Source of the DNA: a virus
Lineage: Duplodnaviria; Heunggongvirae; Uroviricota; Caudoviricetes
IMG/VR virus record: IMGVR_UViG_2700989272_000004
Span: 1 to 14,487 of that record
Strand: one strand, 5' to 3'
Length of the DNA: 14,487 bases
Under the pieces are notes generated by a model. That model worked only from the letters and a program-made list of their open reading frames with translations, made no database searches and was not told where the DNA came from. Position 1 is the stretch's first letter; every line of letters begins with the position of its first letter. A program made the translations under genes and the position numbers. Below, one piece after another: positions 1-14,487 of this stretch.

Positions 1-681
1 AACTGGATGGCAGGCCTGAAGTCCGGCTGGAGTGAGTGGGAAGAGAGCGCCACGGACAGTATGTCGCAGGTAAAAAGTGCAGCCACGCAGACCTTTGATG
101 GTATTGCACAGAATATGGCGGCGATGCTGACCGGCAGTGAGCAGAACTGGCGCAGCTTCACCCGTTCCGTGCTGTCCATGATGACAGAAATTCTGCTTAA
201 GCAGGCAATGGTGGGGATTGTCGGGAGTATCGGCAGCGCCATTGGCGGGGCTGTTGGTGGCGGCGCATCCGCGTCAGGCGGTACAGCCATTCAGGCAGCT
301 GCGGCGAAATTCCATTTTGCGACCGGGGGATTTACGGGAACCGGCGGCAAATATGAGCCAGCGGGGATTGTTCACCGTGGTGAATTTGTCTTCACGAAGG
401 AGGCAACCAGCCGGATTGGTGTCGGCAACCTGTACCGCCTGATGCGGGGCTATGCGGAAGGTGGTTATGTGGGCGGTGCCGGAAGTCCGGCGCAGATGCG
501 GCGGGCTGAAGGCATTAATTTTAATCAGAACAATCACGTGGTGATTCAGAACGACGGTACGAATGGTCTGCCAGGTCCACAGATGATGAAGGCGGTGTAT
601 GACATGGCCCGCAAGGGTGCCCGTGATGAAATCCAGGCACAGATGCGCGATGGTGGTCTGTTCTCCGGAGGTGGACGATGA
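1..681 (+). CDS. H: Tail tape measure protein, C-terminal portion (5' end lies upstream of the window); lambda gpH-like
   Basis: Open frame runs from base 1 to TGA at 679-681. Translation (NWMAGLKSGWSEWEES...GGLFSGGGR) matches my memory of the lambda gpH C-terminus, including the Gly-rich GSIGSAIGGAVGGG segment. Stop overlaps the start of M, as in lambda. Confidence 0.9.
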   Translation, partial: NWMAGLKSGWSEWEESATDSMSQVKSAATQTFDGIAQNMAAMLTGSEQNWRSFTRSVLSMMTEILLKQAMVGIVGSIGSAIGGAVGGGASASGGTAIQAAAAKFHFATGGFTGTGGKYEPAGIVHRGEFVFTKEATSRIGVGNLYRLMRGYAEGGYVGGAGSPAQMRRAEGINFNQNNHVVIQNDGTNGLPGPQMMKAVYDMARKGARDEIQAQMRDGGLFSGGGR

Positions 682-1007
682 AAACCTTCCGCTGGAAAGT
701 GAAACCCGGTATGGATGTGGCTTCGGTCCCTTCTGTAAGAAAGGTGCGCTTTGGTGATGGCTATTCTCAGCGAGCGCCTGCCGGGCTGAATGCCAACCTG
801 AAAACGTACAGCGTGACGCTTTCTGTCCCCCGTGAGGAGGCCACGGTACTGGAGTCGTTTCTGGAAGAGCACGGGGGCTGGAAATCCTTTCTGTGGACGC
901 CGCCTTATGAGTGGCGGCAGATAAAGGTGACCTGCGCAAAATGGTCGTCGCGGGTCAGTATGTTGCGTGTTGAGTTCAGCGCAGAGTTTGAACAGGTGGT
1001 GAACTGA
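678..1007 (+). CDS. M: Minor tail protein M (109 aa)
   Basis: ATG at 678 overlaps the H stop (ATGA). The 109-aa product (MKTFRWKVKPGMDV...) has the same length and near-identical sequence to lambda gpM as I recall it. Position between H and L is syntenic. Confidence 0.9.
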   Translation: MKTFRWKVKPGMDVASVPSVRKVRFGDGYSQRAPAGLNANLKTYSVTLSVPREEATVLESFLEEHGGWKSFLWTPPYEWRQIKVTCAKWSSRVSMLRVEFSAEFEQVVN

Positions 1008-1705
1008 TGCAGGATATCCGGCAGGAAACACTGAATGAATGCACCCGTGCGGAGCAGTCGGCCAGCGTGGTGCTCTGGGAAATCGATCTGACAGAGGTCG
1101 GTGGAGAACGTTATTTTTTCTGTAATGAGCAGAACGAAAAAGGTGAGCCGGTCACCTGGCAGGGGCGACAGTATCAGGCGTATCCCATTCAGGGGAGTGG
1201 TTTTGAACTGAATGGCAAAGGCACCAGTACGCGCCCCACGCTGATGGTTTCTAACCTGTACGGTATGGTCACCGGGATGGCGGAAGATCTACAGAGTCTG
1301 GTCGGCGGAACGGTGGTCCGGCGTAAGGTTTACGCCCGTTTTCTGGATGCGGTGAACTTCGTCAACGGAAACAGTGACGCCGATCCGGAGCAGGAGGTGA
1401 TCAGCCGCTGGCGCATTGAGCAGTGCAGCGAACTGAGCGCGGTGAGTGCCTCTTTTGTACTGTCCACGCCGACGGAAACGGACGGCGCTGTTTTTCCGGG
1501 ACGTATCATGCTGGCCAACACCTGCACCTGGACCTATCGCGGTGATGAGTGCGGTTATCACGGTCCGGCAGTCGCGGATGAATATGACCAGCCGACGTCC
1601 GATATCACGAAGGATAAATGCAGCAAATGCCTGAGCGGCTGTAAGTTTCGCAATAACGTCGGCAACTTTGGCGGCTTCCTTTCCATTAACAAACTTTCGC
1701 AGTAA
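1007..1705 (+). CDS. L: Tail tip protein L (232 aa)
   Basis: ATG at 1007 overlaps the M stop (TGATG). The 232-aa product matches lambda gpL in length and sequence, including the C-terminal Cys cluster (CGYHG...CSKCLSGC). Confidence 0.92.
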   Translation: MQDIRQETLNECTRAEQSASVVLWEIDLTEVGGERYFFCNEQNEKGEPVTWQGRQYQAYPIQGSGFELNGKGTSTRPTLMVSNLYGMVTGMAEDLQSLVGGTVVRRKVYARFLDAVNFVNGNSDADPEQEVISRWRIEQCSELSAVSASFVLSTPTETDGAVFPGRIMLANTCTWTYRGDECGYHGPAVADEYDQPTSDITKDKCSKCLSGCKFRNNVGNFGGFLSINKLSQ

Positions 1706-1710
1706 ATCCC

Positions 1711-2454
1711 ATGACACAGACAGAATCAGCGATTCTGGCGCACGCCCGGCGATGTGCGCCAGCGGAGTCGTGCGGCTTCGTGGTAAGCACGCCGGAGGGG
1801 GAAAGATATTTCCCCTGCGTGAATATCTCCGGTGAGCCGGAGGCGTATTTCCGTATGTCGCCGGAAGACTGGCTGCAGGCAGAAATGCAGGGTGAGATTG
1901 TGGCGCTGGTCCACAGCCACCCCGGTGGTCTGCCCTGGCTGAGTGAGGCCGACCGGCGGCTGCAGGTGCAGAGTGATTTGCCGTGGTGGCTGGTCTGCCG
2001 GGGGACGATTCATAAGTTCCGCTGTGTGCCGCATCTCACCGGGCGGCGCTTTGAACACGGGGTGACGGACTGTTACACGCTGTTCCGGGATGCTTATCAT
2101 CTGGCGGGGATTGAGATGCCGGATTTTCATCGCGAGGATGACTGGTGGCGTCACGGTCAGAATCTCTATCTGGATAATCTGGAGGCCACAGGGCTGTATC
2201 AGGTGCCGTTGTCATCAGCACAACCGGGCGATGTGCTGCTGTGCTGTTTTGGTTCATCGGTGCCGAATCATGCCGCCATTTACTGTGGTGACGGTGAGCT
2301 GCTGCACCATATTCCTGAACAACTGAGTAAACGAGAGAGGTACACCGACAAATGGCAGCGACGCACACACTCCCTCTGGCGTCACCGGGCATGGCACGCA
2401 TCTGCCTTTACGGGGATTTACAACGATTTGGCCGCCGCATCGACCTTCGTGTGA
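1711..2454 (+). CDS. K: Tail tip assembly protein K (JAMM/MPN plus NlpC/P60 domains); long form of 247 aa, classic lambda annotation would start at 1855
   Basis: ORF 1711..2454. JAMM-like motif HSHPGGLPWLSEAD (H-x-H-x7-S-x2-D) and a Cys/His set (DCYTLF, HAAIY) consistent with NlpC/P60. Sequence from MSPEDW (1855) onward matches lambda K as I remember it. The 3' end overlaps I by about 100 nt, as in lambda. Confidence 0.85.
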   Translation: MTQTESAILAHARRCAPAESCGFVVSTPEGERYFPCVNISGEPEAYFRMSPEDWLQAEMQGEIVALVHSHPGGLPWLSEADRRLQVQSDLPWWLVCRGTIHKFRCVPHLTGRRFEHGVTDCYTLFRDAYHLAGIEMPDFHREDDWWRHGQNLYLDNLEATGLYQVPLSSAQPGDVLLCCFGSSVPNHAAIYCGDGELLHHIPEQLSKRERYTDKWQRRTHSLWRHRAWHASAFTGIYNDLAAASTFV

Positions 2455-3023
2455 AAACGGGGGCTGAAGCCATTCGGGCGCTGGCCACACAGCTCCCGGC
2501 GTTTCGTCAGAAACTGAGCGACGGCTGGTATCAGGTACGGATTGCCGGGCAGGATGTCAGCACGTCCGGATTAACGGCGCAGTTACATGAGACTCTGCCT
2601 GATGGCGCTGTGATTCATATTGTTCCCAGAGTCGCCGGGGCCAAGTCAGGTGGCGTATTCCAGATTGTCCTGGGGGCTGCCGCCATTGCCGGATCATTCT
2701 TTACCGCCGGGGCCACCCTTGCAGCATGGGGGGCAGCCATTGGGGCCGGTGGTATGACCGGCATCCTGTTTTCTCTCGGTGCCAGTATGGTGCTCGGTGG
2801 TGTGGCGCAGATGCTGGCACCGAAAGCCAGAACTCCCCGTACACAGACAACGGATAACGGCAAACAGAACACCTATTTCTCCTCACTGGATAACATGGTT
2901 GCCCAGGGCAATGTTCTGCCTGTTCTGTACGGTGAAATGCGCGTGGGGTCACGCGTGGTTTCTCAGGAGATCAGCACGGCAGACGAAGGGGATGGTGGTC
3001 AGGTTGTGGTGATTGGTCGCTGA
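2352..3023 (+). CDS. I: Tail tip assembly protein I (223 aa)
   Basis: 223-aa ORF overlapping the K 3' end. Sequence matches lambda gpI from memory, including a Gly/Ala-rich hydrophobic segment (GAAAIAGSFFTAGATLAAWGAAIGAGG). Confidence 0.9.
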   Translation: MAATHTLPLASPGMARICLYGDLQRFGRRIDLRVKTGAEAIRALATQLPAFRQKLSDGWYQVRIAGQDVSTSGLTAQLHETLPDGAVIHIVPRVAGAKSGGVFQIVLGAAAIAGSFFTAGATLAAWGAAIGAGGMTGILFSLGASMVLGGVAQMLAPKARTPRTQTTDNGKQNTYFSSLDNMVAQGNVLPVLYGEMRVGSRVVSQEISTADEGDGGQVVVIGR

Positions 3024-3041
3024 TGCAAAATGTTTTATGTG

Positions 3042-3061
3042 AAACCGCCTGCGGGCGGTTT
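3042..3061 (+). other. Stem-loop in the I-J intergenic spacer (possible mRNA structure, not a full terminator)
   Basis: AAACCGCC (3042-3049), loop TGCG, GGCGGTTT (3054-3061). Followed by a T-poor sequence and the J ribosome-binding site. Confidence 0.3.
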
Positions 3062-3083
3062 TGTCGTTTATGGAGCGTGAGGA

Positions 3084-6000
3084 ATGGGTAAAGGCAGCAG
3101 TAAGGGGCATACCCCGCGCGAAGCGAAGGACAACCTGAAGTCCACGCAGCTGCTGAGTGTGATCGATGCCATCAGCGAAGGGCCGGTTGAAGGTCCGGTG
3201 GACGGATTAAAAAGCGTGCTGCTGAACAGTACGCCGGTGCTGGACAGTGAGGGGAATACCAATATATCCGGCGTCACGGTGGTGTTCCGGACCGGTGAGC
3301 AGGAGCAGTCACCGCCGGAGGGATTTGAATCCTCCGGCTCCGAGACGGTGCTGGGTACGGAAGTGAAATATGACACGCCGATCACCCGGGCCATTACGTC
3401 TGCAAACATCGACCGTCTGCGCTTTACCTTCGGTGTACAGGCACTGGTGGAAACCACCTCAAAGGGGGACCGGAATCCGTCGGAAGTCCGCCTGCTGGTT
3501 CAGATACAGCGTAATGGTGGCTGGGTGACGGAAAAAGACATCACCATTAAGGGCAAAACCACCTCGCAGTATCTGGCCTCGGTGGTGGTGGATAACCTGC
3601 CGCCGCGCCCGTTCAATATACGGATGCGCAGGATGACGCCGGACAGCACCACAGACCAGCTGCAGAACAAAACGCTCTGGTCGTCATACACCGAAATCAT
3701 CGATGTGAAACAGTGCTACCCGAACACGGCCCTGGTCGGCGTGCAGGTGGATTCGGAGCAGTTCGGCAGCCAGCAGGTGAGCCGTAATTATCATCTGCGC
3801 GGGCGCATTCTGCAGGTGCCGTCGAACTATAACCCGCAGACGCGGCAATACAGCGGTATCTGGGATGGAACGTTTAAGCCAGCATACAGCAACAACATGG
3901 CCTGGTGTCTGTGGGATATGCTGACCCATCCGCGCTACGGCATGGGGAAACGTCTTGGTGCGGCGGATGTGGATAAATGGGCGCTGTATGTCATCGGCCA
4001 GTACTGCGACCAGTCGGTGCCGGACGGCTTTGGCGGCACGGAGCCGCGCATCACCTGTAATGCGTACCTGACCACACAGCGCAAGGCGTGGGATGTTCTC
4101 AGTGATTTCTGCTCGGCGATGCGCTGTATGCCGGTATGGAACGGGCAGACGCTGACGTTCGTGCAGGACCGACCGTCGGATAAGGTGTGGACCTATAACC
4201 GCAGTAATGTGGTGATGCCGGATGATGGCGCGCCGTTCCGCTACAGCTTCAGCGCCCTGAAGGACCGCCATAATGCCGTTGAGGTGAACTGGATTGACCC
4301 GGATAACGGCTGGGAGACGGCGACAGAGCTTGTGGAGGACACGCAGGCCATTGCCCGTTACGGTCGTAACGTCACGAAGATGGATGCCTTTGGCTGTACC
4401 AGCCGGGGGCAGGCACACCGCGCCGGGCTGTGGCTGATTAAAACGGAACTGCTGGAAATGCAGACCGTGGATTTCAGCGTGGGCGCAGAAGGGCTTCGCC
4501 ATGTGCCGGGCGATGTCATTGAAATCTGCGATGATGACTATGCCGGTATCAGCACCGGCGGGCGCGTGCTGGCGGTGAACAGCCAGACCCGGACGCTGAC
4601 GCTCGACCGTGAAATCACGCTGCCATCCTCCGGTACCACGCTGATAAGCCTGGTTGACGGAAGTGGCAATCCGGTCAGCGTGGAGGTTCAGTCCGTCACC
4701 GACGGTGTGAAGGTGAAAGTGAGCCGTGTTCCTGACGGCGTTGCCGGATACAGCATATGGGGGCTGAAGCTGCCGACGCTGCGCCAGCGCCTGTTCCGCT
4801 GTGTGAGTATCCGTGAGAACGATGACGGCACGTATGCCATCACTGCCGTGCAGCATGTACCGGAGAAAGAAGCCATCGTGGATAACGGGGCGCACTTTGA
4901 CGGCGACCAGAGCGGAACGGTAAACGGTGTCACGCCGCCAGCGGTGCAGCACCTGACCGCAGAAGTCACCGCAGACAGCGGGGAATACCAGGTGCTGGCG
5001 CGCTGGGACACGCCGAAGGTGGTGAAGGGCGTGAGTTTCCTGCTTCGCCTGACCGTGGCAGCGGATGACGGCAGTGAGCGGCTGGTCAGCACGGCCCGGA
5101 CGACGGAAACCACATACCGCTTCACGCAGCTGGCGCTGGGAAACTACAGGCTGACAGTCCGGGCGGCAAATGCCTGGGGACAGCAGGGCGATCCGGCATC
5201 GGTATCGTTCCGGATTGCCGCACCGGCAGCGCCGTCGCGGATTGAGCTGACGCCGGGCTATTTTCAGATAACCGCCACGCCGCATCTTGCCGTTTATGAT
5301 CCGACGGTACAGTTTGAGTTCTGGTTCTCGGAAAAGCGGATTGCGGATATCAGGCAGGTTGAAACCACAGCACGCTATCTTGGTACGGCGCTGTACTGGA
5401 TAGCCGCCAGTATCAATATCAAACCGGGCCATGATTATTACTTTTATATCCGCAGTGTGAACACCGTTGGCAAATCGGCATTTGTGGAGGCCGTCGGTCG
5501 GGCGAGCGATGATGCGGAAGGTTACCTGGATTTTTTCAAAGGCCAGATAACCGAATCCCATCTCGGCAAGGAGCTGCTGGAAAAAGTCGACCTGACGGAG
5601 GATAACGCCAGCAGACTGGAGGAGTTTTCGAAAGAGTGGAAAGACGCCAACGATAAATGGAATGCCATGTGGGGCGTCAAAATTGAGCAGACCAAAGACG
5701 GCAAACATTATGTCGCGGGGCTTGGCCTCAGCATGGAGGATACAGAGGAAGGCAAACTGAGCCAGTTTCTGGTTGCTGCTAACCGTATCGCGTTTATTGA
5801 CCCGGCAAACGGGAATGAAACGCCGATGTTTGTGGCGCAGGGCAACCAGATATTCATGAACGACGTGTTCCTCAAACGTCTGACGGCCCCCACCATTACC
5901 AGTGGTGGAAATCCACCGGTATTTTCCCTGACACCGGACGGAAAGCTGACCGCTAAAAATGCGGATATCAGTGGCAGTGTGAATGCGAACTCCGGGACGC

Positions 6001-6497
6001 TCAACAACGTCACGATAAATGAAAACTGTACGATTAAGGGCATGCTGGAGGCGAATCAGGTCAGAGGTGATTTTGTTAAAACAGTATCCAAATCATTCCC
6101 GAAAAAGGCTGGTACGTGGGGTAATACGGAAACACCAGACGGGACGGTTACAGTCACCATCAGCGATGATCATAACTTTGACCGTCAAATCATTATTCCG
6201 CCCATTATCTTTAACGGTATAGCGTATGACGCTCCGGGAAGTGGTGATAACCCGGGAGGTACAAGGTACACGGGGTATGGTTTTGAAGTTCGCAAAAACG
6301 GCGTATTAATCGCATCCAGAGAAACTAAAGGGGCCATTCCCGGTAGTTACAGTGCGGTTATTGATATGCCGAGTGGCAGGGGAAGCGTCACTCTGGAGTT
6401 TAAGATTTTCCAGAAAGGCAATCAGGGGGCAGGCAATATCACCGACTGTACGGTGATTGTGACCAAAAAGGCTGCTTCCGGTATCAGTATTCGTTGA
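3084..6497 (+). CDS. J: Central tail fibre / host-specificity protein J (1137 aa) with a diverged C-terminal receptor-binding domain
   Basis: ATG at 3084 preceded by GGAG/GAGGA. N-terminus [34 protein letters not shown] and most of the protein match lambda gpJ (1132 aa) from memory. The last ~150 aa (from about nt 6030) differ from the lambda C-terminus as I recall it, and the DNA there is visibly AT-richer. Confidence 0.95.
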
Positions 6498-6519
6498 AAT
6501 TGTTATAACCCCAATAAAG

Positions 6520-6543
6520 GGCGTCAGGAATGACGCCTTTTTT
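6520..6543 (+). terminator. Rho-independent terminator downstream of J
   Basis: Perfect 7-bp stem GGCGTCA (6520-6526) / TGACGCC (6531-6537), loop GGAA, followed by a T6 run (6538-6543). Confidence 0.75.
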
Positions 6544-6567
6544 ATTGCAGAAAAGCGAGAGGTAATT

Positions 6568-7167
6568 ATGCGTAAAGTTTGTGCAGCCATTTTGTCCGCA
6601 GCCATCTGTCTGGTCGTATCCGGTGCGCCTGCATGGGCGTCTGAACATCAGTCCTCGCTGAGCGCGGGGTATCTTCATGCCTCGACGAACGTTCCCGGCA
6701 GCGATGATCTTAACGGGATTAACGTGAAATACCGTTATGAGTTTACGGACACGCTGGGGATGGTGACGTCATTCAGTTATGCAGAAGACAAGAATCGCCA
6801 GCTGACTCATTACAGCGATACCCGCTGGCATGAAGATTCCGTGCGTAACCGCTGGTTCAGCGTGATGGCGGGGCCGTCTGTGCGCGTGAATGAATGGTTC
6901 AGCGCGTATGCGATGGCGGGTGTGGCTTACAGCCGTATTTCTACTTTCTCCGGGGATTATCTCCGCGTAACTGACAACAAGGGGAAAACGCACGAAGTGC
7001 TGACCGGAAGTGATGACGGTCGCCGCAGCAACACGTCTCTGGCGTGGGGGACTGGCGTGCAGTTTAACCCGACCGAATCCGTGGCCATTGATATTGCTTA
7101 TGAAGGCTCCGGCAGTGGCGACTGGCGCACTGACGGTTTCATCGTGGGTGTCGGTTATAAGTTCTGA
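6568..7167 (+). CDS. lom: Lom-family outer-membrane beta-barrel protein (Ail/Lom/PagC family), 199 aa
   Basis: Signal-peptide-like N-terminus (MRKVCAAILSAAICLVVSGAPAWA). C-terminus AIDIAYEGSGSGDWRTDGFIVGVGYKF and GINVKYRYEFTD match lambda Lom from memory. Position directly after J is syntenic with lambda. Confidence 0.9.
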   Translation: MRKVCAAILSAAICLVVSGAPAWASEHQSSLSAGYLHASTNVPGSDDLNGINVKYRYEFTDTLGMVTSFSYAEDKNRQLTHYSDTRWHEDSVRNRWFSVMAGPSVRVNEWFSAYAMAGVAYSRISTFSGDYLRVTDNKGKTHEVLTGSDDGRRSNTSLAWGTGVQFNPTESVAIDIAYEGSGSGDWRTDGFIVGVGYKF

Positions 7168-7194
7168 TTAGCCAGGTAACACAGTGTTATGACA

Positions 7195-7220
7195 GCCCGC
7201 CGGTTCAGGCGGGCTTTTTT
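7195..7220 (+). terminator. Rho-independent terminator downstream of lom
   Basis: Stem GCCCGCC (7195-7201) / GGCGGGC (7208-7214), loop GGTTCA, followed by a T6 run (7215-7220). Confidence 0.75.
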
Positions 7221-7231
7221 GTGGGGTGAAT

Positions 7232-10200
7232 ATGGCAGTAAAGATTTCAGGTGTACTGAAAGACGGTGCAGGTAAACCGGTACAGAACTGCACAATCCAG
7301 CTGAAAGCAAAACGTAACAGCACCACGGTGGTGGTGAACACGGTGGCCTCAGAAAATCCGGATGAAGCCGGGCGTTACAGCATGGACGTTGAGTACGGTC
7401 AGTACAGCGTTATTCTGTTGGTGGAAGGCTTCCCGCCATCGCATGCCGGGACCATCACCGTGTATGAAGACTCACAACCGGGTACGCTGAATGATTTTCT
7501 TGGTGCCATGACGGAGGATGATGCCCGTCCGGAGGCACTGCGCCGCTTTGAACTGATGGTGGAAGAGGTGGCGCATAACGCGTCCGCAGTGGCACAGAAC
7601 ACGGCAGCCGCAAAGAAGTCAGCCAGCGATGCCGGCACATCTGCCCGTGAGGCGGCAACCCATGCAACCGATGCTGCAGGCTCAGCACGTGCCGCCAGCA
7701 CGTCAGCCGGACAGGCTGCATCATCTGCTCAGTCAGCATCTTCCAGCGCAGGAACGGCATCAACAAAGGCCACTGAAGCATTAAAAAGTGCTGCCGCTGC
7801 AGAGTCCTCAAAAAGCGCGGCAGCCACCAGTGCCGGTGCGGCGAAAACGTCAGAAACGAATGCCGCAGCATCACAACTATCAGCAGCCACTTCTGCATCC
7901 ACCGCGACCACGAAGGCGTCAGAAGCTGCCACCTCAGCCCGGGATGCGGCGGCCTCAAAAGAGGCAGCGAAATCATCAGAAACGAACGCATCATCAAGTG
8001 CCAGTAGTGCAGCTTCCTCGGCAACGGCGGCAGGAAATTCCGCGAAGGCCGCAAAAACGTCTGAGACGAATGCGGATAACAGCGCACAGGCGGCAGCAGA
8101 CTCACAAACTGCATCGGCAAACTCCGCGACAGCAGCCAAAAAATCAGAAACCAACGCGAAAAATAGCGAGGCAGCAGCAAAGAGCAGCGAAACAAACGCT
8201 AAAGCCAGCGAAACTAATGCTAAATCCAGTGAAACAAACGCGGCGAAATCTGCGGCGGACGCACTTAATTATCGCAACCAGGCGCAAGTAATTGTTGGGG
8301 GTAATATCGGTCTTGGCTCAGCTCCGCGTGATTGTCCTGATATTTCCGGCAACCCATCAGGGTATATCGGATTTATGCGTATTCGTGAAGCAGCCACTGG
8401 TTTTCCGTCCATTGCTTCAGGTGAGTCGTACTTAACAGGCTTTATTAGCGGTTGCGATGGTTCTCCTACATATGCGGGTATATTCCAGGGTTGGAATTCA
8501 AGATCCCTGTATACCTATCGCTGGTCGAGCGCCACAGGCCCGCAATGGACACGTCACGCAAGAAAGGATGAAGTTGACCGTCTTGACCAATGGAATAGCG
8601 AAACATGGTTATATAATCATGATAAATCCATGCGACTTGGTTTAACCGCCTCATCATGGGGTTGTTACAGCGACACACAAAAAAAATGGATACCACTTGA
8701 TGTTTCTCATGGTGGTACTGGTGCGGCAACTATTGATGGTGCAAGAACTAATCTTGGATTAGGCAGGGATAACAGCCCTCAACTTAACAGTCTATTTCTT
8801 GATAGATATAGTGATTCTACTGGCGCATACACTACTGGCGGAATGCTCCATACGAGGCTGTTAGCAAATGACAACACTGTGCGCCTTGCCGCTGATATGT
8901 ATGTTCAGACTTTTCCAAATGAGCAAGGTCGATTAACAATAAGGTTTACATACGGTGGTTCAACTGGTGCTACAAAATGTCTAGACCTTAACTCAGAAGG
9001 TAATTTAATTGTAGATAGTGCGATACTGAAATCAACGGTCGAAAAACCTTTACAAATAAATAGTGCTAACCCGGCAATAAGATTTAATGAAACAGATCGC
9101 CCGGCTAACACGCCTACTTATACTCTCATTGCTAATGCTGGCGACTGGTTTATTCAGAAACGCGATTATGATGATGCCGGAAGCGTTAGTAACGCAATTT
9201 CATATAATTTCGCAAACGACAGAATTGATGTGCAAAATCTTAAAGCGTCTGGGTTAATTACAGCTAACTCAGGAATCGCAACATTAACAGGTCATGACTG
9301 GAACGCTCAGCATACTGATAACGTCGACAAATTTAGACCAATCGCAGGCAGTACAAACGGCCCGGCAGGTTCTATGGTTCTTGGCGGCATTCATGTTCAA
9401 TTTAGTAAAAATTATGCTGTGCAGTTCGGAGGCCGCAATTCCGGTTTTTGGGGAAGAACAATTGAAAATGGAACGACGCAGGAATGGAAGAAATTACTAA
9501 CAGTAGACGATCTCAATTCATCTACCGATCTTGCTGTCAGGTCATTAACCACATCTAACCCGGTAAAATCTGGCGGAGGGCGAATTGATGTCCTTGGAAG
9601 CACGTCAGACTATAGCAAAATGGATTGCTTTGTACGTGGGTTTGATAGCACCGGTAATTCTCTCGCGTGGGCGTTGGGTTCATCAGTCGGCGTAAGTAAG
9701 ATGCTGTCGCTAAAAAATTTCTTTAGCGGAGCTGAGATACTGTTAAATGGTAATGACGGCGCGGTTCAACTCAAAACAGGTGCTGTTAACGGGGCTAAAG
9801 CGCAGACGCTCACTATCAACAAGGATGAGGTTAACTCAACTGTTGATTTAACTCTTACAAAACAAACAGGGACTGGAAATAGTTTTGTTTTACAGAACTT
9901 AGGTAATACAGAACTATCATTTGCCGCAAAAGTATGGGGATCAAGTGATCGACAAAACGTTTTTGAGGTTGGAACGTCTGCTGCGTATCTGTTTTATGCG
10001 CAAAAAACGTCAGCAGGCCAGTTGTTTGATGTAAATGGCGCTATTAATTGCACAACGCTGAATCAGTCATCAGACCGCGACCTTAAAGACGATATTCTCG
10101 TTATCAGCGACGCGACGAAAGCAATCCGTAAAATGAACGGATACACCTACACGCTCAGGGAAAACGGGATGCCTTATGCTGGCGTTATTGCACAGGAAGT

Positions 10201-10504
10201 AATGGAGGCGATACCAGAAGCTGTGGGATCGTTTACTCATTACGGTGAAGAGTTGCAGGGACCAACGGTTGACGGCAATGAATTACGTGAAGAAACACGT
10301 TATCTGAATGTTGACTACGCCGCCGTGACGGGGTTACTTGTTCAGGTCGCCCGTGAAACAGATGATCGCGTTACCGCGCTGGAAGAGGAAAACACAACGC
10401 TACGTCAAAATCTGGCAACAGCAGGCACCCGGATCAGCATTCTGGAAAATCAGGTAAGCGAACTGGTTGCACTTGTCCGGCAGTTAACAGGAAGCGAACA
10501 TTGA
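7232..10504 (+). CDS. stf: Side tail fibre protein, mosaic: lambda Stf-like N-terminus with Ser/Ala-rich repeats, novel C-terminal module ending in a peptidase-S74-like intramolecular chaperone domain
   Basis: ATG at 7232 with GGGGTG upstream (the ORF track starts at an in-frame GTG at 7226). N-terminal ~280 aa (MAVKISGVLKDGAGKPVQNCTIQLKAKRNSTTVVV...) match lambda Stf from memory. The C-terminal ~145 aa (SDRDLKDDILVISDATKAIRKMNGYTYT...LEEENTTLRQNLA...) resemble the self-cleaving chaperone domain of K1F endosialidase / T5 pb1-type fibres. DNA after about nt 8280 is visibly AT-richer. Confidence 0.88.
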   Translation: MAVKISGVLKDGAGKPVQNCTIQLKAKRNSTTVVVNTVASENPDEAGRYSMDVEYGQYSVILLVEGFPPSHAGTITVYEDSQPGTLNDFLGAMTEDDARPEALRRFELMVEEVAHNASAVAQNTAAAKKSASDAGTSAREAATHATDAAGSARAASTSAGQAASSAQSASSSAGTASTKATEALKSAAAAESSKSAAATSAGAAKTSETNAAASQLSAATSASTATTKASEAATSARDAAASKEAAKSSETNASSSASSAASSATAAGNSAKAAKTSETNADNSAQAAADSQTASANSATAAKKSETNAKNSEAAAKSSETNAKASETNAKSSETNAAKSAADALNYRNQAQVIVGGNIGLGSAPRDCPDISGNPSGYIGFMRIREAATGFPSIASGESYLTGFISGCDGSPTYAGIFQGWNSRSLYTYRWSSATGPQWTRHARKDEVDRLDQWNSETWLYNHDKSMRLGLTASSWGCYSDTQKKWIPLDVSHGGTGAATIDGARTNLGLGRDNSPQLNSLFLDRYSDSTGAYTTGGMLHTRLLANDNTVRLAADMYVQTFPNEQGRLTIRFTYGGSTGATKCLDLNSEGNLIVDSAILKSTVEKPLQINSANPAIRFNETDRPANTPTYTLIANAGDWFIQKRDYDDAGSVSNAISYNFANDRIDVQNLKASGLITANSGIATLTGHDWNAQHTDNVDKFRPIAGSTNGPAGSMVLGGIHVQFSKNYAVQFGGRNSGFWGRTIENGTTQEWKKLLTVDDLNSSTDLAVRSLTTSNPVKSGGGRIDVLGSTSDYSKMDCFVRGFDSTGNSLAWALGSSVGVSKMLSLKNFFSGAEILLNGNDGAVQLKTGAVNGAKAQTLTINKDEVNSTVDLTLTKQTGTGNSFVLQNLGNTELSFAAKVWGSSDRQNVFEVGTSAAYLFYAQKTSAGQLFDVNGAINCTTLNQSSDRDLKDDILVISDATKAIRKMNGYTYTLRENGMPYAGVIAQEVMEAIPEAVGSFTHYGEELQGPTVDGNELREETRYLNVDYAAVTGLLVQVARETDDRVTALEEENTTLRQNLATAGTRISILENQVSELVALVRQLTGSEH
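8180..8242 (+). repeat. Three tandem in-frame 21-bp repeats encoding K(S/A)SETNA heptads, inside a wider Ser/Ala-rich low-complexity tract (about 7590-8260) of stf
   Basis: Codons read KSSETNA-KASETNA-KSSETNA at 8180-8242. Further dispersed (K/A)(T/S)SETNA copies near 7847, 7970, 8055 and 8140. Confidence 0.8.
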
Positions 10505-10552
10505 TATCCTTCAAGCCCTGAAGGAGGCTGTTCCTGGTACGTTCAGACTGTT

Positions 10553-10675
10553 GTTGAGCTGGAGATCGCAACGGAGGAAGAAATCTCGTTGCTGGAAGCA
10601 TGGAAAACATATCGGGTATTGCTGAACCGTGTTGATACAGTAAACCCCGTCTGGCCTCCACCTTCGAAGCGATAG
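10553..10675 (+). pseudogene. 3'-terminal remnant of a tail fibre assembly gene (tfa), about 40 codons, no start codon
   Basis: Translation [40 protein letters not shown] matches the conserved Tfa C-terminus (lambda Tfa ends ...[36 protein letters not shown]... as I recall). It is in frame with, and 3' of, the stf TGA stop at 10502-10504. Confidence 0.65.
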
Positions 10676-10979
10676 CCCAGCAACTCCTAAATAGCTGCGC
10701 ATAATACCGCTACACCAGCCGTTTTACTGACATTTGGAATATTGCGTGAGGGCAACATATCGAGGGGCAGATACAGCTCGGTCAAATAGAAAAACAGCCC
10801 CACTATTTACCATGCAATAGCTGGTCAAAAGGAGAGCACTATTCCGCTCCGCGTAGTATTTTGTGTTTATAGTGATAACTTAGGTAATGCTTAGTCACTA
10901 AGATACTTTGCTATTGGAGAGCGATTTATAATGTGGGCGCAACAGATTTTTACTATTGCGCCACTTGCTCTTGTGAGTA

Positions 10980-12068
10980 CTATTCGCTATAAGTTAATGT
11001 TGGTTTTGAAAGTCTTTTGGATATTGTTTTTCCGATATTAATGAATGGAGTTTCAATATATTTATAAATAAAGAATGATAAGAACAAGCTAAGAGCAATA
11101 ATGAATGAAAACTTAGAAAACCCAGGTTTTTCATAAAGCGGAATGAAATCCTTAAAATTAATTAAAAATAGCATTACTATCGCATGGGATAAATACAGAG
11201 AGTAAGAGATATCACCTAGCTTACTGAGTATTTTATTTTCCCTTAATCCGAAGTTAACTTCATAAAGTAAAACTCCCGTAATTATGGAGGCTGCCCACAA
11301 TCCGAAGTTTAAAGGGCCATGACCAAATCTGAATTGATAAAAATATGAGCAAACACCAAATGAAACCAAAAGGAATGATATCGCCTTTGCGTTTTTTATA
11401 TGTTTAAATTTTCTGTGTATTATATACAGAAACATCCCATAAACGAATTCTAACAGCATGGGTGATGACATTAAGTTTAGAAAGCCAATATGCCAATGAC
11501 CTGTATCACCAATCGTAAACTTACTTGATAGAGAAAGGCTGTTGGAAAATTTCAACTGTATGAGAAGTAGCGGGACTATCAATGCAATAACTGATATTAA
11601 TAATCTGTTTTTATGACTCAGCGATATTGCAAGCATAAAAATGAAATAAAAATAGACTTCAAAGGTTAATGTCCATGCTGGATAAAGCACGTTGTATCCG
11701 AAGAATGGCGCTTCTGAATAATAGTCCAGGTGAAGCAGAAACAATGAACGCAATAATTCACTTTCGGTGAAGACCGGGTTCAATAAAAAGAATAAGATTG
11801 TGCAAATGAAAAATACAGGGTAAATCCTGAAAAAACGCCTGGTCATAAAGTTAATAGGGGAATTTGTTTCTTTTTTTTGACTCGATAGCATTATTATAAA
11901 TCCACTTATAATAAAAAACAGATCAACCCCAAAACCACCACTAATAAACAATAAATCACCTAGATCTTTTTGTGCGTAAACTTCATTTAGGTATTGTTTA
12001 TTGTGATATGCAACAACGAGTAATGCTGCTACACCTCGCAAATAGTGAATTGATTTTACCTTCTTCAT
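10980..12068 (-). CDS. Acyltransferase family 3 integral membrane protein (OafA/Oac-like; putative O-antigen/LPS O-acetyltransferase), 362 aa
   Basis: Signature motifs of the acyltransferase-3 family: YLRGVAALLVVAYH (R-x10-H), GVDLFFIISGF, FMTRRFFRIYP, GDISYSLYLSHA, YIETP. Highly hydrophobic throughout. DNA is strikingly AT-rich compared with the flanking phage genes. No obvious Shine-Dalgarno sequence. Confidence 0.88.
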   Translation of the reverse strand: MKKVKSIHYLRGVAALLVVAYHNKQYLNEVYAQKDLGDLLFISGGFGVDLFFIISGFIIMLSSQKKETNSPINFMTRRFFRIYPVFFICTILFFLLNPVFTESELLRSLFLLHLDYYSEAPFFGYNVLYPAWTLTFEVYFYFIFMLAISLSHKNRLLISVIALIVPLLLIQLKFSNSLSLSSKFTIGDTGHWHIGFLNLMSSPMLLEFVYGMFLYIIHRKFKHIKNAKAISFLLVSFGVCSYFYQFRFGHGPLNFGLWAASIITGVLLYEVNFGLRENKILSKLGDISYSLYLSHAIVMLFLINFKDFIPLYEKPGFSKFSFIIALSLFLSFFIYKYIETPFINIGKTISKRLSKPTLTYSE

Positions 12069-12282
12069 TTTTATATAATCACTGTTCCAATTTTTTTTAT
12101 TTTACAAACAATTCTATCTAGCTCATTAGTACTCAAAGTCAGATTGGTAGCAATAAAAAAACAAGATATGTGATGACATGGCGCGGGGCTCAGAACCACT
12201 CGTGTATTTTCGCCACTGGCTATGACTGGCTGCACCTGCAAGATCTGCCATTTGTGTGCCAGTATACCCAAGCTCTGACTTT

Positions 12283-12784
12283 ATGTTTACCAGATCCTCT
12301 GGAGTGCCGGGGAGTATAATCGTTGATTAATCGAATCTGCAACTATTTCAGAACGACCTAGGTTAAAGTGCGCTCTGCAGTCTCTTATATAAGGTGATAC
12401 TTTAATTGTCTGGAAACTGGACAGGTTAGGAAGGAGCAGGAAACATCTTATTATACTTACCGAGTAGCTGCGGGTAAGGGGGGGGGATTTCCGTAGCCTG
12501 ACAGGTAACATTGACACGTCAACACCGATGGTTTTTTTATTTTTCCATGTGATGGGGCCCTGGTTGAAATGAAGCGTGAACTGATTGATGACTGAACAAA
12601 AGTTGGACTGGAAGATGCTCGCGCACAGGGAGGAATTGGTGGACGTCGTCCTAAACTTACATCAGAACAATGGGCGCAGGCCGGGCGATTAATTGCATCA
12701 GGAGTTCCTCGCCAGAAGGTGGCGATCATCTATGATATTGGCATATCGACTTTGTATAAGAAGTTTCCGGTCGGAGATAAATGA
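12283..12784 (+). pseudogene. Decayed serine DNA invertase gene (Pin/Hin/Gin/Cin family) with frameshifts and in-frame stops
   Basis: Recognisable invertase segments lie in three different frames: ERPRLKCALQSLI*GDTLIVWKLDRLGRSRKHLIILTE (frame of 12393), DFRSLTGNIDTSTPM and FFHVMGALVEMKRELIDD* around 12487-12595, and an intact C-terminal helix-turn-helix GGIGGRRPKLTSEQWAQAGRLIASGVPRQKVAIIYDIGISTLYKKFPVGDK* (12629-12784). In-frame stops at 12390 and 12593. Confidence 0.75.
12478..12486 (+). repeat. G9 homopolymer tract inside the invertase pseudogene
   Basis: Nine consecutive G at 12478-12486. The invertase reading frame changes in this neighbourhood. Confidence 0.9.
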
Positions 12785-12887
12785 AACCGTAGCACGTCGT
12801 ATGCAAGAACGTGCCACGGCTGGCTGGCGAACTTTCGATAGTGCGAGTATTGAATGATTTCCAGCCGTTACCGATTTTACGTGTTAA

Positions 12888-13136
12888 TTAGTGAACAAAC
12901 CACTCGTCAGCAGATTCCCAGGTGTCTTTCAGAGTCTCCTGAACAAAAGTTTTTGCAGAATCCTTATCTGCGGTGCGTGTAACAGAAAGACCATCGTTGC
13001 TGGTGGCTTTTACGATCACCTCTACATCGTCATAACGTTTACTGATGCGTCGGGTTAATTCTTCCTTTAACGCATCCACAGCACCGGTTGGCATTTTAGT
13101 CATTTTTTCTTTGGCTATGCAGATTTCAATACGCAT
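12888..13136 (-). CDS. DinI-family protein (DNA-damage-inducible protein I-like), 82 aa
   Basis: [11 protein letters not shown]...[16 protein letters not shown] resembles E. coli DinI (MRIEVTIAK...ETWESADDWFV) as I recall it. GAGGGA Shine-Dalgarno 6 nt upstream of the ATG. Two LexA boxes in its promoter. Confidence 0.85.
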
Positions 13137-13149
13137 AAAAGTCCCTCTA

Positions 13150-13169
13150 TACTGTGTTTGTATACAGTA
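13150..13169 (-). promoter_or_regulatory. LexA (SOS) box 1, promoter-proximal, upstream of the dinI-like gene
   Basis: TACTGTGTTTGTATACAGTA: a perfect TACTG-N10-CAGTA palindrome, 14-33 nt upstream of the dinI-like start codon. Confidence 0.75.
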
Positions 13170-13171
13170 TT

Positions 13172-13201
13172 ATTTTTAACTGTATGGATAAACAGTGTCA
13201 A
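13172..13201 (-). promoter_or_regulatory. Putative sigma70 promoter of the dinI-like gene (-35 TTGACA, 17-nt spacer, -10 TAAAAAT)
   Basis: On the - strand: TTGACA (complement of 13196-13201), 17-nt spacer, TAAAAA(T) (complement of 13172-13178). The -35 overlaps the integrase stop codon at 13198-13200. Confidence 0.5.
13178..13197 (-). promoter_or_regulatory. LexA (SOS) box 2, lying in the spacer of the putative dinI-like promoter
   Basis: AACTGTATGGATAAACAGTG (CTGT-N8-ACAG core), centred about 28 bp from box 1. Confidence 0.65.
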
Positions 13202-14295
13202 GGGGTCTTATTTCTGCTCCTTTGGAGCTCTTCAAAACGATTATGTAAAGATTTCGGATACAGTTCGGTATATACCTGCCATAGCACGTTTAATGAACGA
13301 TGCCCTGTAACCTGGGCTACTTCCTCAATACTAAAACCAGCCTCAAATAAGCGACTTGCCCCTTCTCTACGCAAATCATGGTATCGCAGATCCTTAATAC
13401 CTAATTTGCTTCTTACCCTCTGAAATCCCGCAGTAACAGAAGTGCTGTTATATGGAAAAATGAATTCCGATTTTTTGGGCTGTCGTTGGACGATATCCCA
13501 GGCTTCCCCAAGCAAGGCTACTTTCATGTGGTTGCCTTCCTTTTTGCGTGGATCTTTCCTGTCTCTTACGAGTATAGATTTTTGTTCCTGGTCGAGATCT
13601 TCCCATCGTAACCGGCATACTTCTCCGATTCGCATACAGGACCACACAGAAAATTTGAGGATATCAACGAACGGAATTTTTGAGCATTTATGAGTAGATC
13701 GTTGTTGAAGGCCTTCAATGAGCATGTCCAGTTCATCAGATGCTGGTCTACGATTACGACGGTTTGATTTACCAATCAAACCAAGTTTAAGTAGATATGG
13801 ACGAGCACTTTTCGCCGGGTTTGATGTGTAATTAATTCCGTATACAGGTTTGGCCGCATCCAGAACACTGCCAAGATAACTAACATCGTGGCTGACTGTT
13901 GCTGGACCTGCGCCAGCGTTGTTTCTTAGCCTGCAATGTTCAATTACGTCATTTTCTGTCAGTTCAGATAGTTTGATCGCGGAGATGTCACTATCCATAA
14001 GCAGTTCCAGCACATATCTTTTAGTACGGCCTGCTTTACCTCCGGCATTTGGGTCATTTAAATATTTGTGTAGTAAGTCACGGACTGTAAGTCCGTCAAC
14101 TGCATTTGATGATGGAATGCCATATAGATCTAATTCCATCACTTTCTGTGTGCCCCATGTTTTGGCATGAGCATGTTTAGGGAATGTTTTGCTTTCCCTG
14201 TAAGTGATAACACCTTTTTCTTTGATAATCACATTACAGCGATAGCGTGGTGTGCCATCGGATTTTAGTCGTTTCTCTATGTTATAGTACGCCAT
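13198..14295 (-). CDS. int: Tyrosine recombinase / phage integrase, 365 aa
   Basis: 365-aa ORF with GAGG Shine-Dalgarno 8 nt upstream. C-terminal catalytic-domain motifs typical of tyrosine integrases: LRYHDLRREGASRL (H-x-x-R) and VTGHRSLNVLWQVYTELY (His plus nucleophilic Tyr). Confidence 0.92.
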   Translation of the reverse strand: MAYYNIEKRLKSDGTPRYRCNVIIKEKGVITYRESKTFPKHAHAKTWGTQKVMELDLYGIPSSNAVDGLTVRDLLHKYLNDPNAGGKAGRTKRYVLELLMDSDISAIKLSELTENDVIEHCRLRNNAGAGPATVSHDVSYLGSVLDAAKPVYGINYTSNPAKSARPYLLKLGLIGKSNRRNRRPASDELDMLIEGLQQRSTHKCSKIPFVDILKFSVWSCMRIGEVCRLRWEDLDQEQKSILVRDRKDPRKKEGNHMKVALLGEAWDIVQRQPKKSEFIFPYNSTSVTAGFQRVRSKLGIKDLRYHDLRREGASRLFEAGFSIEEVAQVTGHRSLNVLWQVYTELYPKSLHNRFEELQRSRNKTP

Positions 14296-14314: not shown

Positions 14315-14350
14315 GGGTTCCCATAAAACGTGGGAACCTGTGCGGGAACC
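14315..14350. other. Inverted/direct GGGAACC repeat cluster upstream of int (possible protein-binding sites or 5'-UTR hairpin)
   Basis: GGGTTCCCA (14315-14323) and TGGGAACC (14331-14338) form an 8-bp-stem hairpin with a 7-nt loop. A third GGGAACC copy at 14344-14350. Confidence 0.3.
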
Positions 14351-14487
14351 TAACGCGAGAAAAATAGCCTGAAATGTTCAAAAATGCACGATAATCATGA
14401 AACACAAAAAATTAATCAAACCAGCGTGATGCCTGAAAAAACTGGTGTTTACTGGAATTCTCGGTTTAGCATTGCTCCTATGCTCGA

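Follow-up and report, generated by a model that had tools for sequence, protein, structure and literature searches.

A DinI-like gene behind two predicted LexA operators as a probable self-contained moron of lambdoid phages that integrate at dusA

The dinI-like gene and its predicted promoter

The window analysed here, by which we mean the whole 14,487-nt stretch of viral DNA, carries towards its right-hand end the 5′ end of a dusA gene, a divergent tyrosine integrase gene (int) and, directly downstream of int, a small dinI-like gene that is preceded by two LexA boxes and followed by a 3′ untranslated region (3′UTR) and a terminator hairpin. The features on which the following sections draw are, in the order in which they are met when the minus strand is read from its 5′ end:

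14384–14487, plus strand: phage-borne replacement dusA 5′ end, MHDNHETQKINQTSVMPEKTGVYWNSRFSIAPML..., divergent from int (from its translation and from alignment to the dusA of strain 104 and to mEp460)
13198–14295, minus strand: dusA-associated tyrosine integrase, immediately upstream of the cassette (Pfam Phage_integrase, E=1e-20; PHROG integrase families)
13196–13201, minus strand: -35 hexamer TTGACA, consensus; left boundary of the mobile cassette
13178–13197, minus strand: LexA box 2, CACTGTTTATCCATACAGTT, occupying the spacer between -35 and -10
13172–13178, minus strand: -10 region TAAAAAT (promoter scan; the GenBank record of mEp460 annotates a promoter at the same place)
13150–13169, minus strand: LexA box 1, TACTGTATACAAACACAGTA, between the -10 and the Shine-Dalgarno sequence and over the predicted transcription start (~13165)
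13142–13147, minus strand: Shine-Dalgarno sequence GAGGGA, 5 nt upstream of the ATG (read from the sequence)
12888–13136, minus strand: dinI-like gene, 82 aa, ATG at 13136–13134; product a predicted binder of the RecA filament groove
12822–12887, minus strand: 3′UTR, the 66 nt between the dinI stop codon and the terminator, containing a GGCUGG...CCAGCC stem
12785–12821, minus strand: terminator hairpin with a 14-bp stem and a 9-nt loop

The gene is DinI-like, as the original prediction had it. Its product matches the Pfam DinI family (PF06183) with E=1.1e-19 and 70.9 bits against a cut-off of 24.2, residues 16–80 aligning with the full length of the profile (positions 1–63 of 63); it also matches PHROG 189, ‘RecA filament binding protein DinI’ (E=6e-31), is 46% identical to Escherichia coli K-12 DinI over the full length by BLASTP and matches the DinI structures 1ghh/7ywa in the PDB (E=3.7e-13). 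Against the NCBIfam equivalog model for chromosomal DinI (NF007893) it scores 73 bits, below the 111-bit cut-off, which places the window protein as a paralogue of chromosomal DinI; this status agrees with the RefSeq name ‘DinI-like family protein’, and small insertions and deletions mark the separate subfamily to which the protein belongs. The cryo-EM structure of the RecA–DinI complex has defined a hydrophobic pocket (L13, L21, W71, W77, F78) and an acidic patch (E24, E69, D76), both supported by mutagenesis (PMC9926225). In the pairwise BLASTP alignment these contact positions map to M15, L23, W73, W79, F80, E26, D71 and E78 of the window protein, all eight of them identical or conservatively replaced, and alignment A1 shows no variation at W79 and F80 and almost none at W73 and L23. 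These conserved contact residues, together with what is established for homologues, suggest that the window protein binds RecA. Since LexA, UmuD and lambda CI use the same elements of the RecA groove as DinI (PMC9926225), there is a structural basis for competition between DinI and these three proteins.

The promoter in front of the gene is compact. The 17-nt spacer (13195 to 13179) lies entirely within box 2 and box 1 covers the predicted start, so that the geometry described in the original prediction holds, and every coordinate given there is correct when read against the sequence. The -10 can be read in two ways, either as TAAAAA, which leaves a spacer of 17 nt, or as AAAAAT, which leaves one of 18 nt; for the promoter with the latter spacing the scan counts 10 of 12 consensus matches, the -10 itself agreeing with the consensus at just four of six positions. 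The same scan found no divergent or antisense promoter on the plus strand that would use the same boxes.

Both boxes are perfect CTGT-N8-ACAG palindromes. This motif is present three times in the 14.5-kb window, where 0.17 copies are expected, and two of the three are the boxes described here; none of 200 shuffled sequences held three or more copies. Scoring with a LexA-box matrix, which the original prediction had called for, was carried out as an approximate heterology index, for which a set of 29 E. coli LexA operators was compiled and of which the absolute values are indicative only; it gives 3.4 for box 1 and 5.0 for box 2, within the range of the training operators (1.4–10.0), and the value of either box was reached in 0 of 200 shuffled windows. 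The site that ranks next in the window has an index of 11.4, and the scan thus revealed no further LexA site for int or for any other window gene. The locus therefore has what is expected of a member of the LexA regulon at the level of the promoter itself, namely CTG-N10-CAG palindromes of operator quality, at two sites, which overlap the core elements and the start site of a predicted promoter.

Comparison with related promoters points in the same direction. We aligned 11 promoters of the DinI subfamily of the window (alignment A2; Escherichia, Erwinia, Mixta and others), the proteins of which are down to about 56% identical. The columns that never vary upstream of the ribosome-binding site belong to the -35 (TTGA.A), to the CTG and CAG triplets of both boxes and to the T directly after box 1; the only other invariant columns are one G of the Shine-Dalgarno sequence and the TG of the start codon. 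The AAA core of the -10 is nearly invariant, and the 10-bp cores of the boxes and their flanks are variable. This pattern is a clean footprint of selection on both predicted operators. The view that the palindromes match LexA sites by chance or are remnants of such sites, and that the dinI-like gene is constitutive or silent, could appeal to the weakness of the -10 and to the relatives in which box 2 is lost or degraded (see below), but it is hardly credible when none of the 200 shuffled windows attained the score of either box and when CTG and CAG of both boxes stay fixed across genera in which cores and flanks vary. The two LexA boxes that had been predicted in front of the gene are thus borne out by the palindromes, by their scores and by their conservation.

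The same holds on a wider scale. Among 80 species-level DinI-family loci, diverse loci drawn from a tblastn survey of phage records and from a scan of one genome per species, 72 show one LexA box or more in the 130 nt before the start codon, with a box placed as box 1 is, which makes LexA control the apparent rule for the DinI family; operators conserved in orthologous promoters, both here and in alignment A2, are a further property of the LexA regulon. Two boxes are found at 13 of the 80 loci and are concentrated in the subfamily nearest to the window protein (at least 56% identity), which ranges over Escherichia/Shigella, Erwinia, Mixta and Pantoea and shares the layout TTGACA, box 2, TAAAWAT, box 1. 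Box 2 is specific to this subfamily, being lost in relatives from Klebsiella, Raoultella and Kosakonia and degraded in the BP-4795 type, and more distant phage dinI genes (the Gifsy-like copies of the nin region, and those of Aeromonas) have a single box. The centres of the two boxes are 28 bp apart in the window and 24–28 bp apart among the relatives; given this variation, the boxes are seemingly placed relative to the promoter elements and not to each other, and cooperativity between them in a fixed phase is unlikely.

Taken with experiments on homologues, sequence and conservation lead us to infer that LexA binds the cassette and that DNA damage induces it. SOS control was the expected reading, and it agrees with experiments on other prophage dinI homologues (PMC3121763; PMC8072944).

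Limits of the cassette and its junction with the integrase

The unit that is shared among phages comprises the promoter-operator region, the dinI-like ORF, the conserved 3′UTR and the terminator hairpin (~12777–13201, minus strand). In megablast comparisons with phage records, mEp460 and SKA5 share both dinI and the integrase with the window, and the Stx1 and Stx2 phages, CP-1639, cdtI and 2H10 match only 12777–13201, so that the homology breaks at 13201, the first base of the -35, and at ~12777–12784, at the terminator. Over promoter, gene and 3′UTR the nucleotide identity is 91–99% in mEp460, SKA5, cdtI, CP-1639, VT1-Sakai and many Stx1 and Stx2 phages, whereas the flanks of the cassette differ between the window and other E. 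coli phages that carry it. In phages with unrelated upstream DNA the homology begins exactly at the -35 (TTGAC/TTGAT). What lies upstream of it is, in the Stx phages and BP-4795, a set of ATGCCCCAT-type (attP-type) repeats beside the prophage end, in CP-1639 the ssrA junction and in phage cdtI an unrelated ORF; in PhiR12_5 the promoter cassette likewise stands beside unrelated upstream DNA. Downstream of the cassette, the window has a pin gene in a degraded state and a cargo gene for an acyltransferase. Of 5426 complete E. coli genomes, at least 1408 have a copy that covers 80% or more of the cassette, and a single genome may hold as many as nine matching places.

Phage morons are autonomous cargo cassettes, a concept that comes from work on HK97 and HK022. 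The ORF described here is flanked by a promoter and a terminator of its own, and the homology breaks at both, which is the arrangement that defines a moron. We therefore read the region as a phage moron that is self-contained and repressed by LexA, and its carrier as a lambdoid phage or prophage with dusA as its integration site; we put the probability of this reading at about 0.8.

The assignment to dusA concerns the integrase. Integrases associated with dusA form a family described in the literature, and the gene in the window has the corresponding arrangement: a tyrosine recombinase that lies beside dusA and diverges from it, together with a replacement dusA 5′ end. In E. coli strain 104 the start of dusA is 88 bp from int. 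Phage mEp460 has the same int-dinI pair and the same dusA-like end, and for this reason such an end does not tell a prophage from a free phage.

The stop codon of int (TGA, 13200–13198) is the TGA inside the -35 hexamer TTGACA, and from this the original prediction had concluded that int and the SOS promoter are physically coupled. The overlap is real; a meaningful coupling did not survive the comparison between phages, in which the same cassette is found beside unrelated DNA. On one version of the idea, int and the SOS promoter would be one functional unit, with int transcripts reading into dinI and with LexA on the boxes serving as a roadblock or gate, the coupling being deliberate. Such a unit could draw on the position of the stop codon within the -35, on the distance of just 61 bp, without a terminator, from the int stop codon to the dinI ATG and on the frequency of the int-dinI pair, 80% or more of 12700–13400 being covered in about 640 E. 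coli records. It is nevertheless improbable, since the cassette starts at TTGAC/TTGAT by unrelated DNA in the Stx phages, BP-4795, CP-1639, cdtI and PhiR12_5, and since the relatives from Erwinia and Mixta have no conservation upstream of the -35; both observations imply that the cassette works without int. Because the cassette begins at the -35 whatever lies upstream, the overlap of the int stop codon with the -35 is best described as a mosaic recombination junction. It is a by-product of the joining of cassette and int that is seen in the dusA-integrase context only, and no regulatory design has been conserved in it. Transcription might run on from int into dinI, as the stretch between the two holds no terminator, but the cassette can be explained without such read-through, which would be incidental to the moron.

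The cassette itself is thus widespread, and it has already been annotated: the GenBank record of mEp460 marks a DinI-like gene and a promoter, and in the phage records inspected the LexA boxes are without annotation. That temperate phages carry LexA-regulated dinI homologues is likewise established, for Gifsy and phiKO2. Our literature search found no published description of the two-operator layout of this subfamily or of the exact limits of the cassette, and these two points are an incremental detail.

The 3′UTR, the terminator and a possible RNA product

Downstream of the coding sequence, the minus strand of 12760–12900 is predicted to fold at -37.2 kcal/mol (z=-2.5). In the window, the 3′ end of the pin pseudogene has taken the place of the U-tract that would follow the terminator stem. 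The stem is also formed in other alleles, from different, compensatory sequences, and most of these have a T-run after it, as does mEp460 (GGTTTTTCTTTTTC). Across 37 distinct alleles the 66-nt 3′UTR is nearly invariant, whereas the hairpin after it varies. A decayed copy of the cassette lies downstream of ecpE in almost all E. coli; in K-12 its 3′UTR is identical at 62 of 66 positions (94%), against 43 of 55 (78%) for the neighbouring coding remnant (Fisher p=0.015, from a single comparison).

These features raise the question of whether the key product of the cassette is, or includes, an RNA. In Klebsiella, the small RNA DinR is cut from the dinI mRNA (PMC10907235), and the 3′UTR and terminator of the window could by analogy be released as a damage-induced small RNA. 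Besides this precedent, such a product would account for the length of the 3′UTR (~100 nt in the window against ~45 nt in K-12 dinI), for the near invariance of the 66-nt stretch before the hairpin and for the better preservation of the 3′UTR than of dead coding sequence in the decayed copy. Other observations weigh against it. The sampled alleles are all close relatives, which makes their invariance weak evidence; the preservation of the decayed copy is a matter of one comparison and one p-value; and more distant cassettes (PhiR12_5, BP-4795, Klebsiella) have unrelated 3′UTRs. A search of Rfam gave no match to a known RNA family on the minus strand of the region. On the plus strand, CssrB of Rfam matches the terminator hairpin with its 3′ end, below the gathering score, and the remaining matches are noise. 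Pairing of the 3′UTR with the translation-initiation region of E. coli ftsZ is not significant, the predicted duplex (-30.3 kcal/mol) comparing with a mean of -26.6 kcal/mol (sd 3.9) for shuffled sequences, 82 of 500 of which paired as well; repression of ftsZ in the manner of DinR was accordingly rejected as a function of this 3′UTR. All in all, we regard an RNA product as unlikely.

Role in induction and comparison with known systems

If the cassette is a LexA-repressed moron, its operation may be pictured as follows. In an undamaged lysogen, LexA dimers would sit on both operators, one in the spacer and one reaching from just past the -10 across the start site, and the two bound operators would jointly shut an otherwise strong promoter with a consensus -35. 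Upon DNA damage, RecA filaments would bring about the self-cleavage of LexA and the promoter would fire. The 82-aa DinI paralogue would then bind in the filament groove of RecA, on a surface that LexA, UmuD and repressors of the lambda-CI type also use. Most likely it would stabilise the filaments and, as it accumulates, compete with the slowly cleaved UmuD and S24-type repressors, a competition that would damp or delay the late outputs of the SOS response, including induction. An S24-peptidase-type repressor is found in phage mEp460, which has the same int-dinI module, and its type marks it as a RecA-dependent repressor.

The steps of this scheme differ in strength. Damping or delay of late RecA-dependent cleavage by the DinI paralogue is plausible, and the net effect on prophage induction is speculative. 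The direction of the effect is uncertain, as E. coli DinI both stabilises filaments and inhibits the co-protease, depending on its concentration (Lusetti 2004; Yasuda 1998/2001, as summarised in PMC3121763 and PMC8456039). Such damping or delay has already been proposed for Stx phages (PMC8456039). Our literature search found a single published genetic test, made with non-polar dinI deletions in Gifsy-1 and Gifsy-3, and these had no significant effect on induction (PMC3121763). For the E. coli cassette described here, the same search found no direct experiments on LexA binding, start site, expression or deletion phenotype; a microarray study of O157 left out many lambdoid genes because they are almost identical in sequence (PMC2669165).

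What has been assembled above is a routine result: a very common prophage cargo gene appears to be tied to the SOS circuit of the host by two conserved, predicted LexA operators, and the limits of its cassette are fixed exactly. Phage DinI paralogues are abundant in pathogenic E. coli, including among Shiga-toxin phages, and might affect the induction of toxin phages by antibiotics. The emergence of quinolone resistance has been linked statistically to a prophage region with a DinI-like gene (PMC10575684). The predicted two-box promoter would also serve as a compact and well-defined SOS-responsive part that can be compared with the single-box promoter of the host gene.

A further idea, which we hold to be doubtful, is that the two-operator cassette is a timing device owned by the phage that sets a threshold or delay for induction, to which the 3′UTR might add a damage-induced small RNA. 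If it were true, the cassette would stay off in mild SOS, when the single-box dinI of the host is already on, and would fire only after deep depletion of LexA, setting the DinI paralogue against the phage's own S24-type repressor for the RecA groove. Either function, timing or small RNA, would give a purpose to a cassette that is present in about a quarter of E. coli genomes at up to nine places.

Among known systems, the nearest comparison is with the dinI genes of other prophages. The Gifsy dinI homologues are LexA-controlled and induced by mitomycin (PMC3121763); with nalidixic acid they are induced 4.6- to 23-fold, at heterology indices of 3.9–5.3 (PMC8072944). The dinI homologue of phiKO2 is under LexA control according to work cited in PMC7556043, and a Serratia phage has a LexA box before a dinI-like gene (PMC3121763; PMC7556043). 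In Gifsy-1, -2 and -3 of Salmonella, as in the window, a prophage-borne DinI paralogue stands behind a sigma-70 promoter whose start site has a high-affinity LexA box close by, the affinity and the induction by damage being predictions for the window; in the Gifsy-like phages mEp237 and FSL SP-016 the box is at the same position relative to the ATG. The layouts differ, however. The Gifsy gene, with its single box, follows a terminator in the nin region and heads an operon that also contains an antirepressor gene and irsA, whereas the gene of the window has two boxes, is monocistronic with its own terminator and lies beside the attachment site and int. The two DinI proteins are only ~43% identical.

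This comparison also bears on whether the cassette is an induction module of the Gifsy or 186 type, in which a small antirepressor, encoded in the same transcript as dinI or fused to its product, would set off induction. Precedents exist for both forms: Gifsy dinI leads a LexA-controlled dinI-antirepressor operon, and the antirepressor Tum of phage 186 has a DinI-like C-terminal half (PMC3121763). The PHROG 189 profile, moreover, has 151 positions, of which the window protein covers only 71–149. A fusion like Tum (~146 aa) is not what the window encodes, since the protein has just 82 aa and is without an N-terminal extension. Nor is there an operon of the Gifsy type: the terminator hairpin begins 66 nt past the stop codon, no downstream ORF is conserved, and the sole one there (12698–12817, 39 aa, GTG start) begins in the hairpin and runs into DNA outside the cassette. 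mEp460, with the same module, has a repressor of the cleavable S24 type. An induction module of this kind is extremely improbable and, in our view, effectively refuted.

SOS promoters with several LexA operators are known from recN and lexA, and the arrangement is generally linked to tight repression. The window resembles them in having more than one LexA operator over the core promoter, and differs in the spacing and placement of the operators; box counts for recN, lexA and dinI of Salmonella are given in PMC8072944. With the dinI-DinR locus of Klebsiella, where LexA ChIP has been done at dinI, the window shares a dinI mRNA with an extended 3′ end, a Rho-independent terminator and LexA control, the latter predicted for the window (PMC10907235). 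Klebsiella DinR pairs with ftsZ by way of a Klebsiella-specific stretch (PMC10907235), whereas the 3′UTR of the window is unrelated and its pairing with ftsZ is, as described above, not significant. The chromosomal dinI of E. coli (b1061; PDB 1GHH; RecA-DinI cryo-EM structure 7YWA, PMC9926225) encodes a protein of the same fold family as the window protein, and both genes are LexA-regulated, that of the window by prediction. The K-12 gene has a single box that overlaps the -10 and a short 3′UTR, whereas the gene of the window has two boxes and a longer 3′UTR.

A decayed copy and the two strands of the terminator hairpin

The SOS cassette, which comprises a LexA-box promoter, a dinI-like ORF, a 3'UTR and a terminator hairpin, has left a trace in the chromosomes of almost all E. 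coli. A decayed, 5'-truncated copy lies between ecpE and ykgJ in 5243 of the 5426 E. coli genomes, on the same strand as ecpE, and contains the 3' part of dinI followed by the 3'UTR and the hairpin:

Window 12794-12945: stretch equivalent to the decayed copy
L097 (sequence piece from K-12, NC_000913.3) 1684-1995: decayed copy
L095 (a further sequence piece) 3001-3149: decayed copy

The UTR part of this copy is preserved at 94%, whereas the dead coding part is preserved at only 78%, and its hairpin may now serve the ecp fimbrial operon as terminator or 3'UTR. On the opposite strand, the Shigella sRNA CssrB (Rfam) matches window 12762-12818 (+) at a sub-threshold 31.7 bits (gathering score, 76). 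The match is confined to the 3' terminator of the model, which is the cassette hairpin read from the other strand, so this hairpin seems to act as a bidirectional terminator, also serving whatever gene converges on dinI.

Neighbouring genes and block exchange

Three features occupy the stretch beyond the hairpin:

10444-10644 (+): match to IS009 (Rfam), a candidate intergenic RNA from E. coli
10980-12068 (-): membrane acyltransferase, 362 aa, Pfam Acyl_transf_3
12122-12784 (+): pseudogene of a pin/pinE-type DNA invertase

The IS009 match is full-length, at 83.6 bits (E=1e-18) and under the gathering score of 117; it overlaps the 3'-terminal 61 bases of the side tail fibre gene before extending downstream. 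Lying in a stretch of 30-35% G+C, as against 41-51% in the adjoining stretches, the acyltransferase is probably a cargo gene of outside origin that modifies surface polysaccharide. Translated in the frame set by its 3' end, which is intact, the invertase pseudogene carries 8 internal stop codons and is open only over the last ~55 codons; at the same position in E. coli strain 104, pinE is intact and is accompanied by an invertible tail-fibre segment.

Several E. coli genomes match the tail, acyltransferase and pin-remnant region over its whole length at 94-97% identity (window 3-12868 against the compared matches H36-H45). Most of these matches end at ~12868, just past the dinI stop codon, which means that the element has had its dinI-int end, including the dusA-associated tyrosine integrase gene, swapped as one block. 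Enterobacterial-type dinI cassettes are also present in records labelled Chryseobacterium, Candidatus Saccharibacteria (MAG) and Vagococcus (L104, L106 and L145), which are probably contamination or mis-binned contigs and not true hosts.

Repeats on the integrase side and a LexA-like protein in mEp460

The interval between int and the dusA-like start (window 14316-14350) contains an inverted and a direct repeat, the copies of which are candidate sites to which the integrase, or an int regulator, would bind:

14316-14322: GGTTCCC
14332-14338: GGGAACC
14344-14350: GGGAACC

Directly 5' of the cassette -35, Stx phages and phages of the BP-4795 type carry tandem ATGCCCCAT(T/A)G-like repeats (L089 ~100-170; L003 ~3380-3440; L049). 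These are probably attP arm-type sites of the integrase, so that in these phages the SOS promoter would abut the attachment site.

The window has no region corresponding to one further gene of phage mEp460, which shares the int-dinI module. The product of this gene, which lies in the nin region (L099 12126-12452, equal to record positions 36425-36751), is 108 aa long and carries the annotation 'LexA DNA binding domain protein'. LexA-box promoters might, in principle, be repressed again during lytic growth by a LexA-like DNA-binding domain of this kind that has no cleavage domain.
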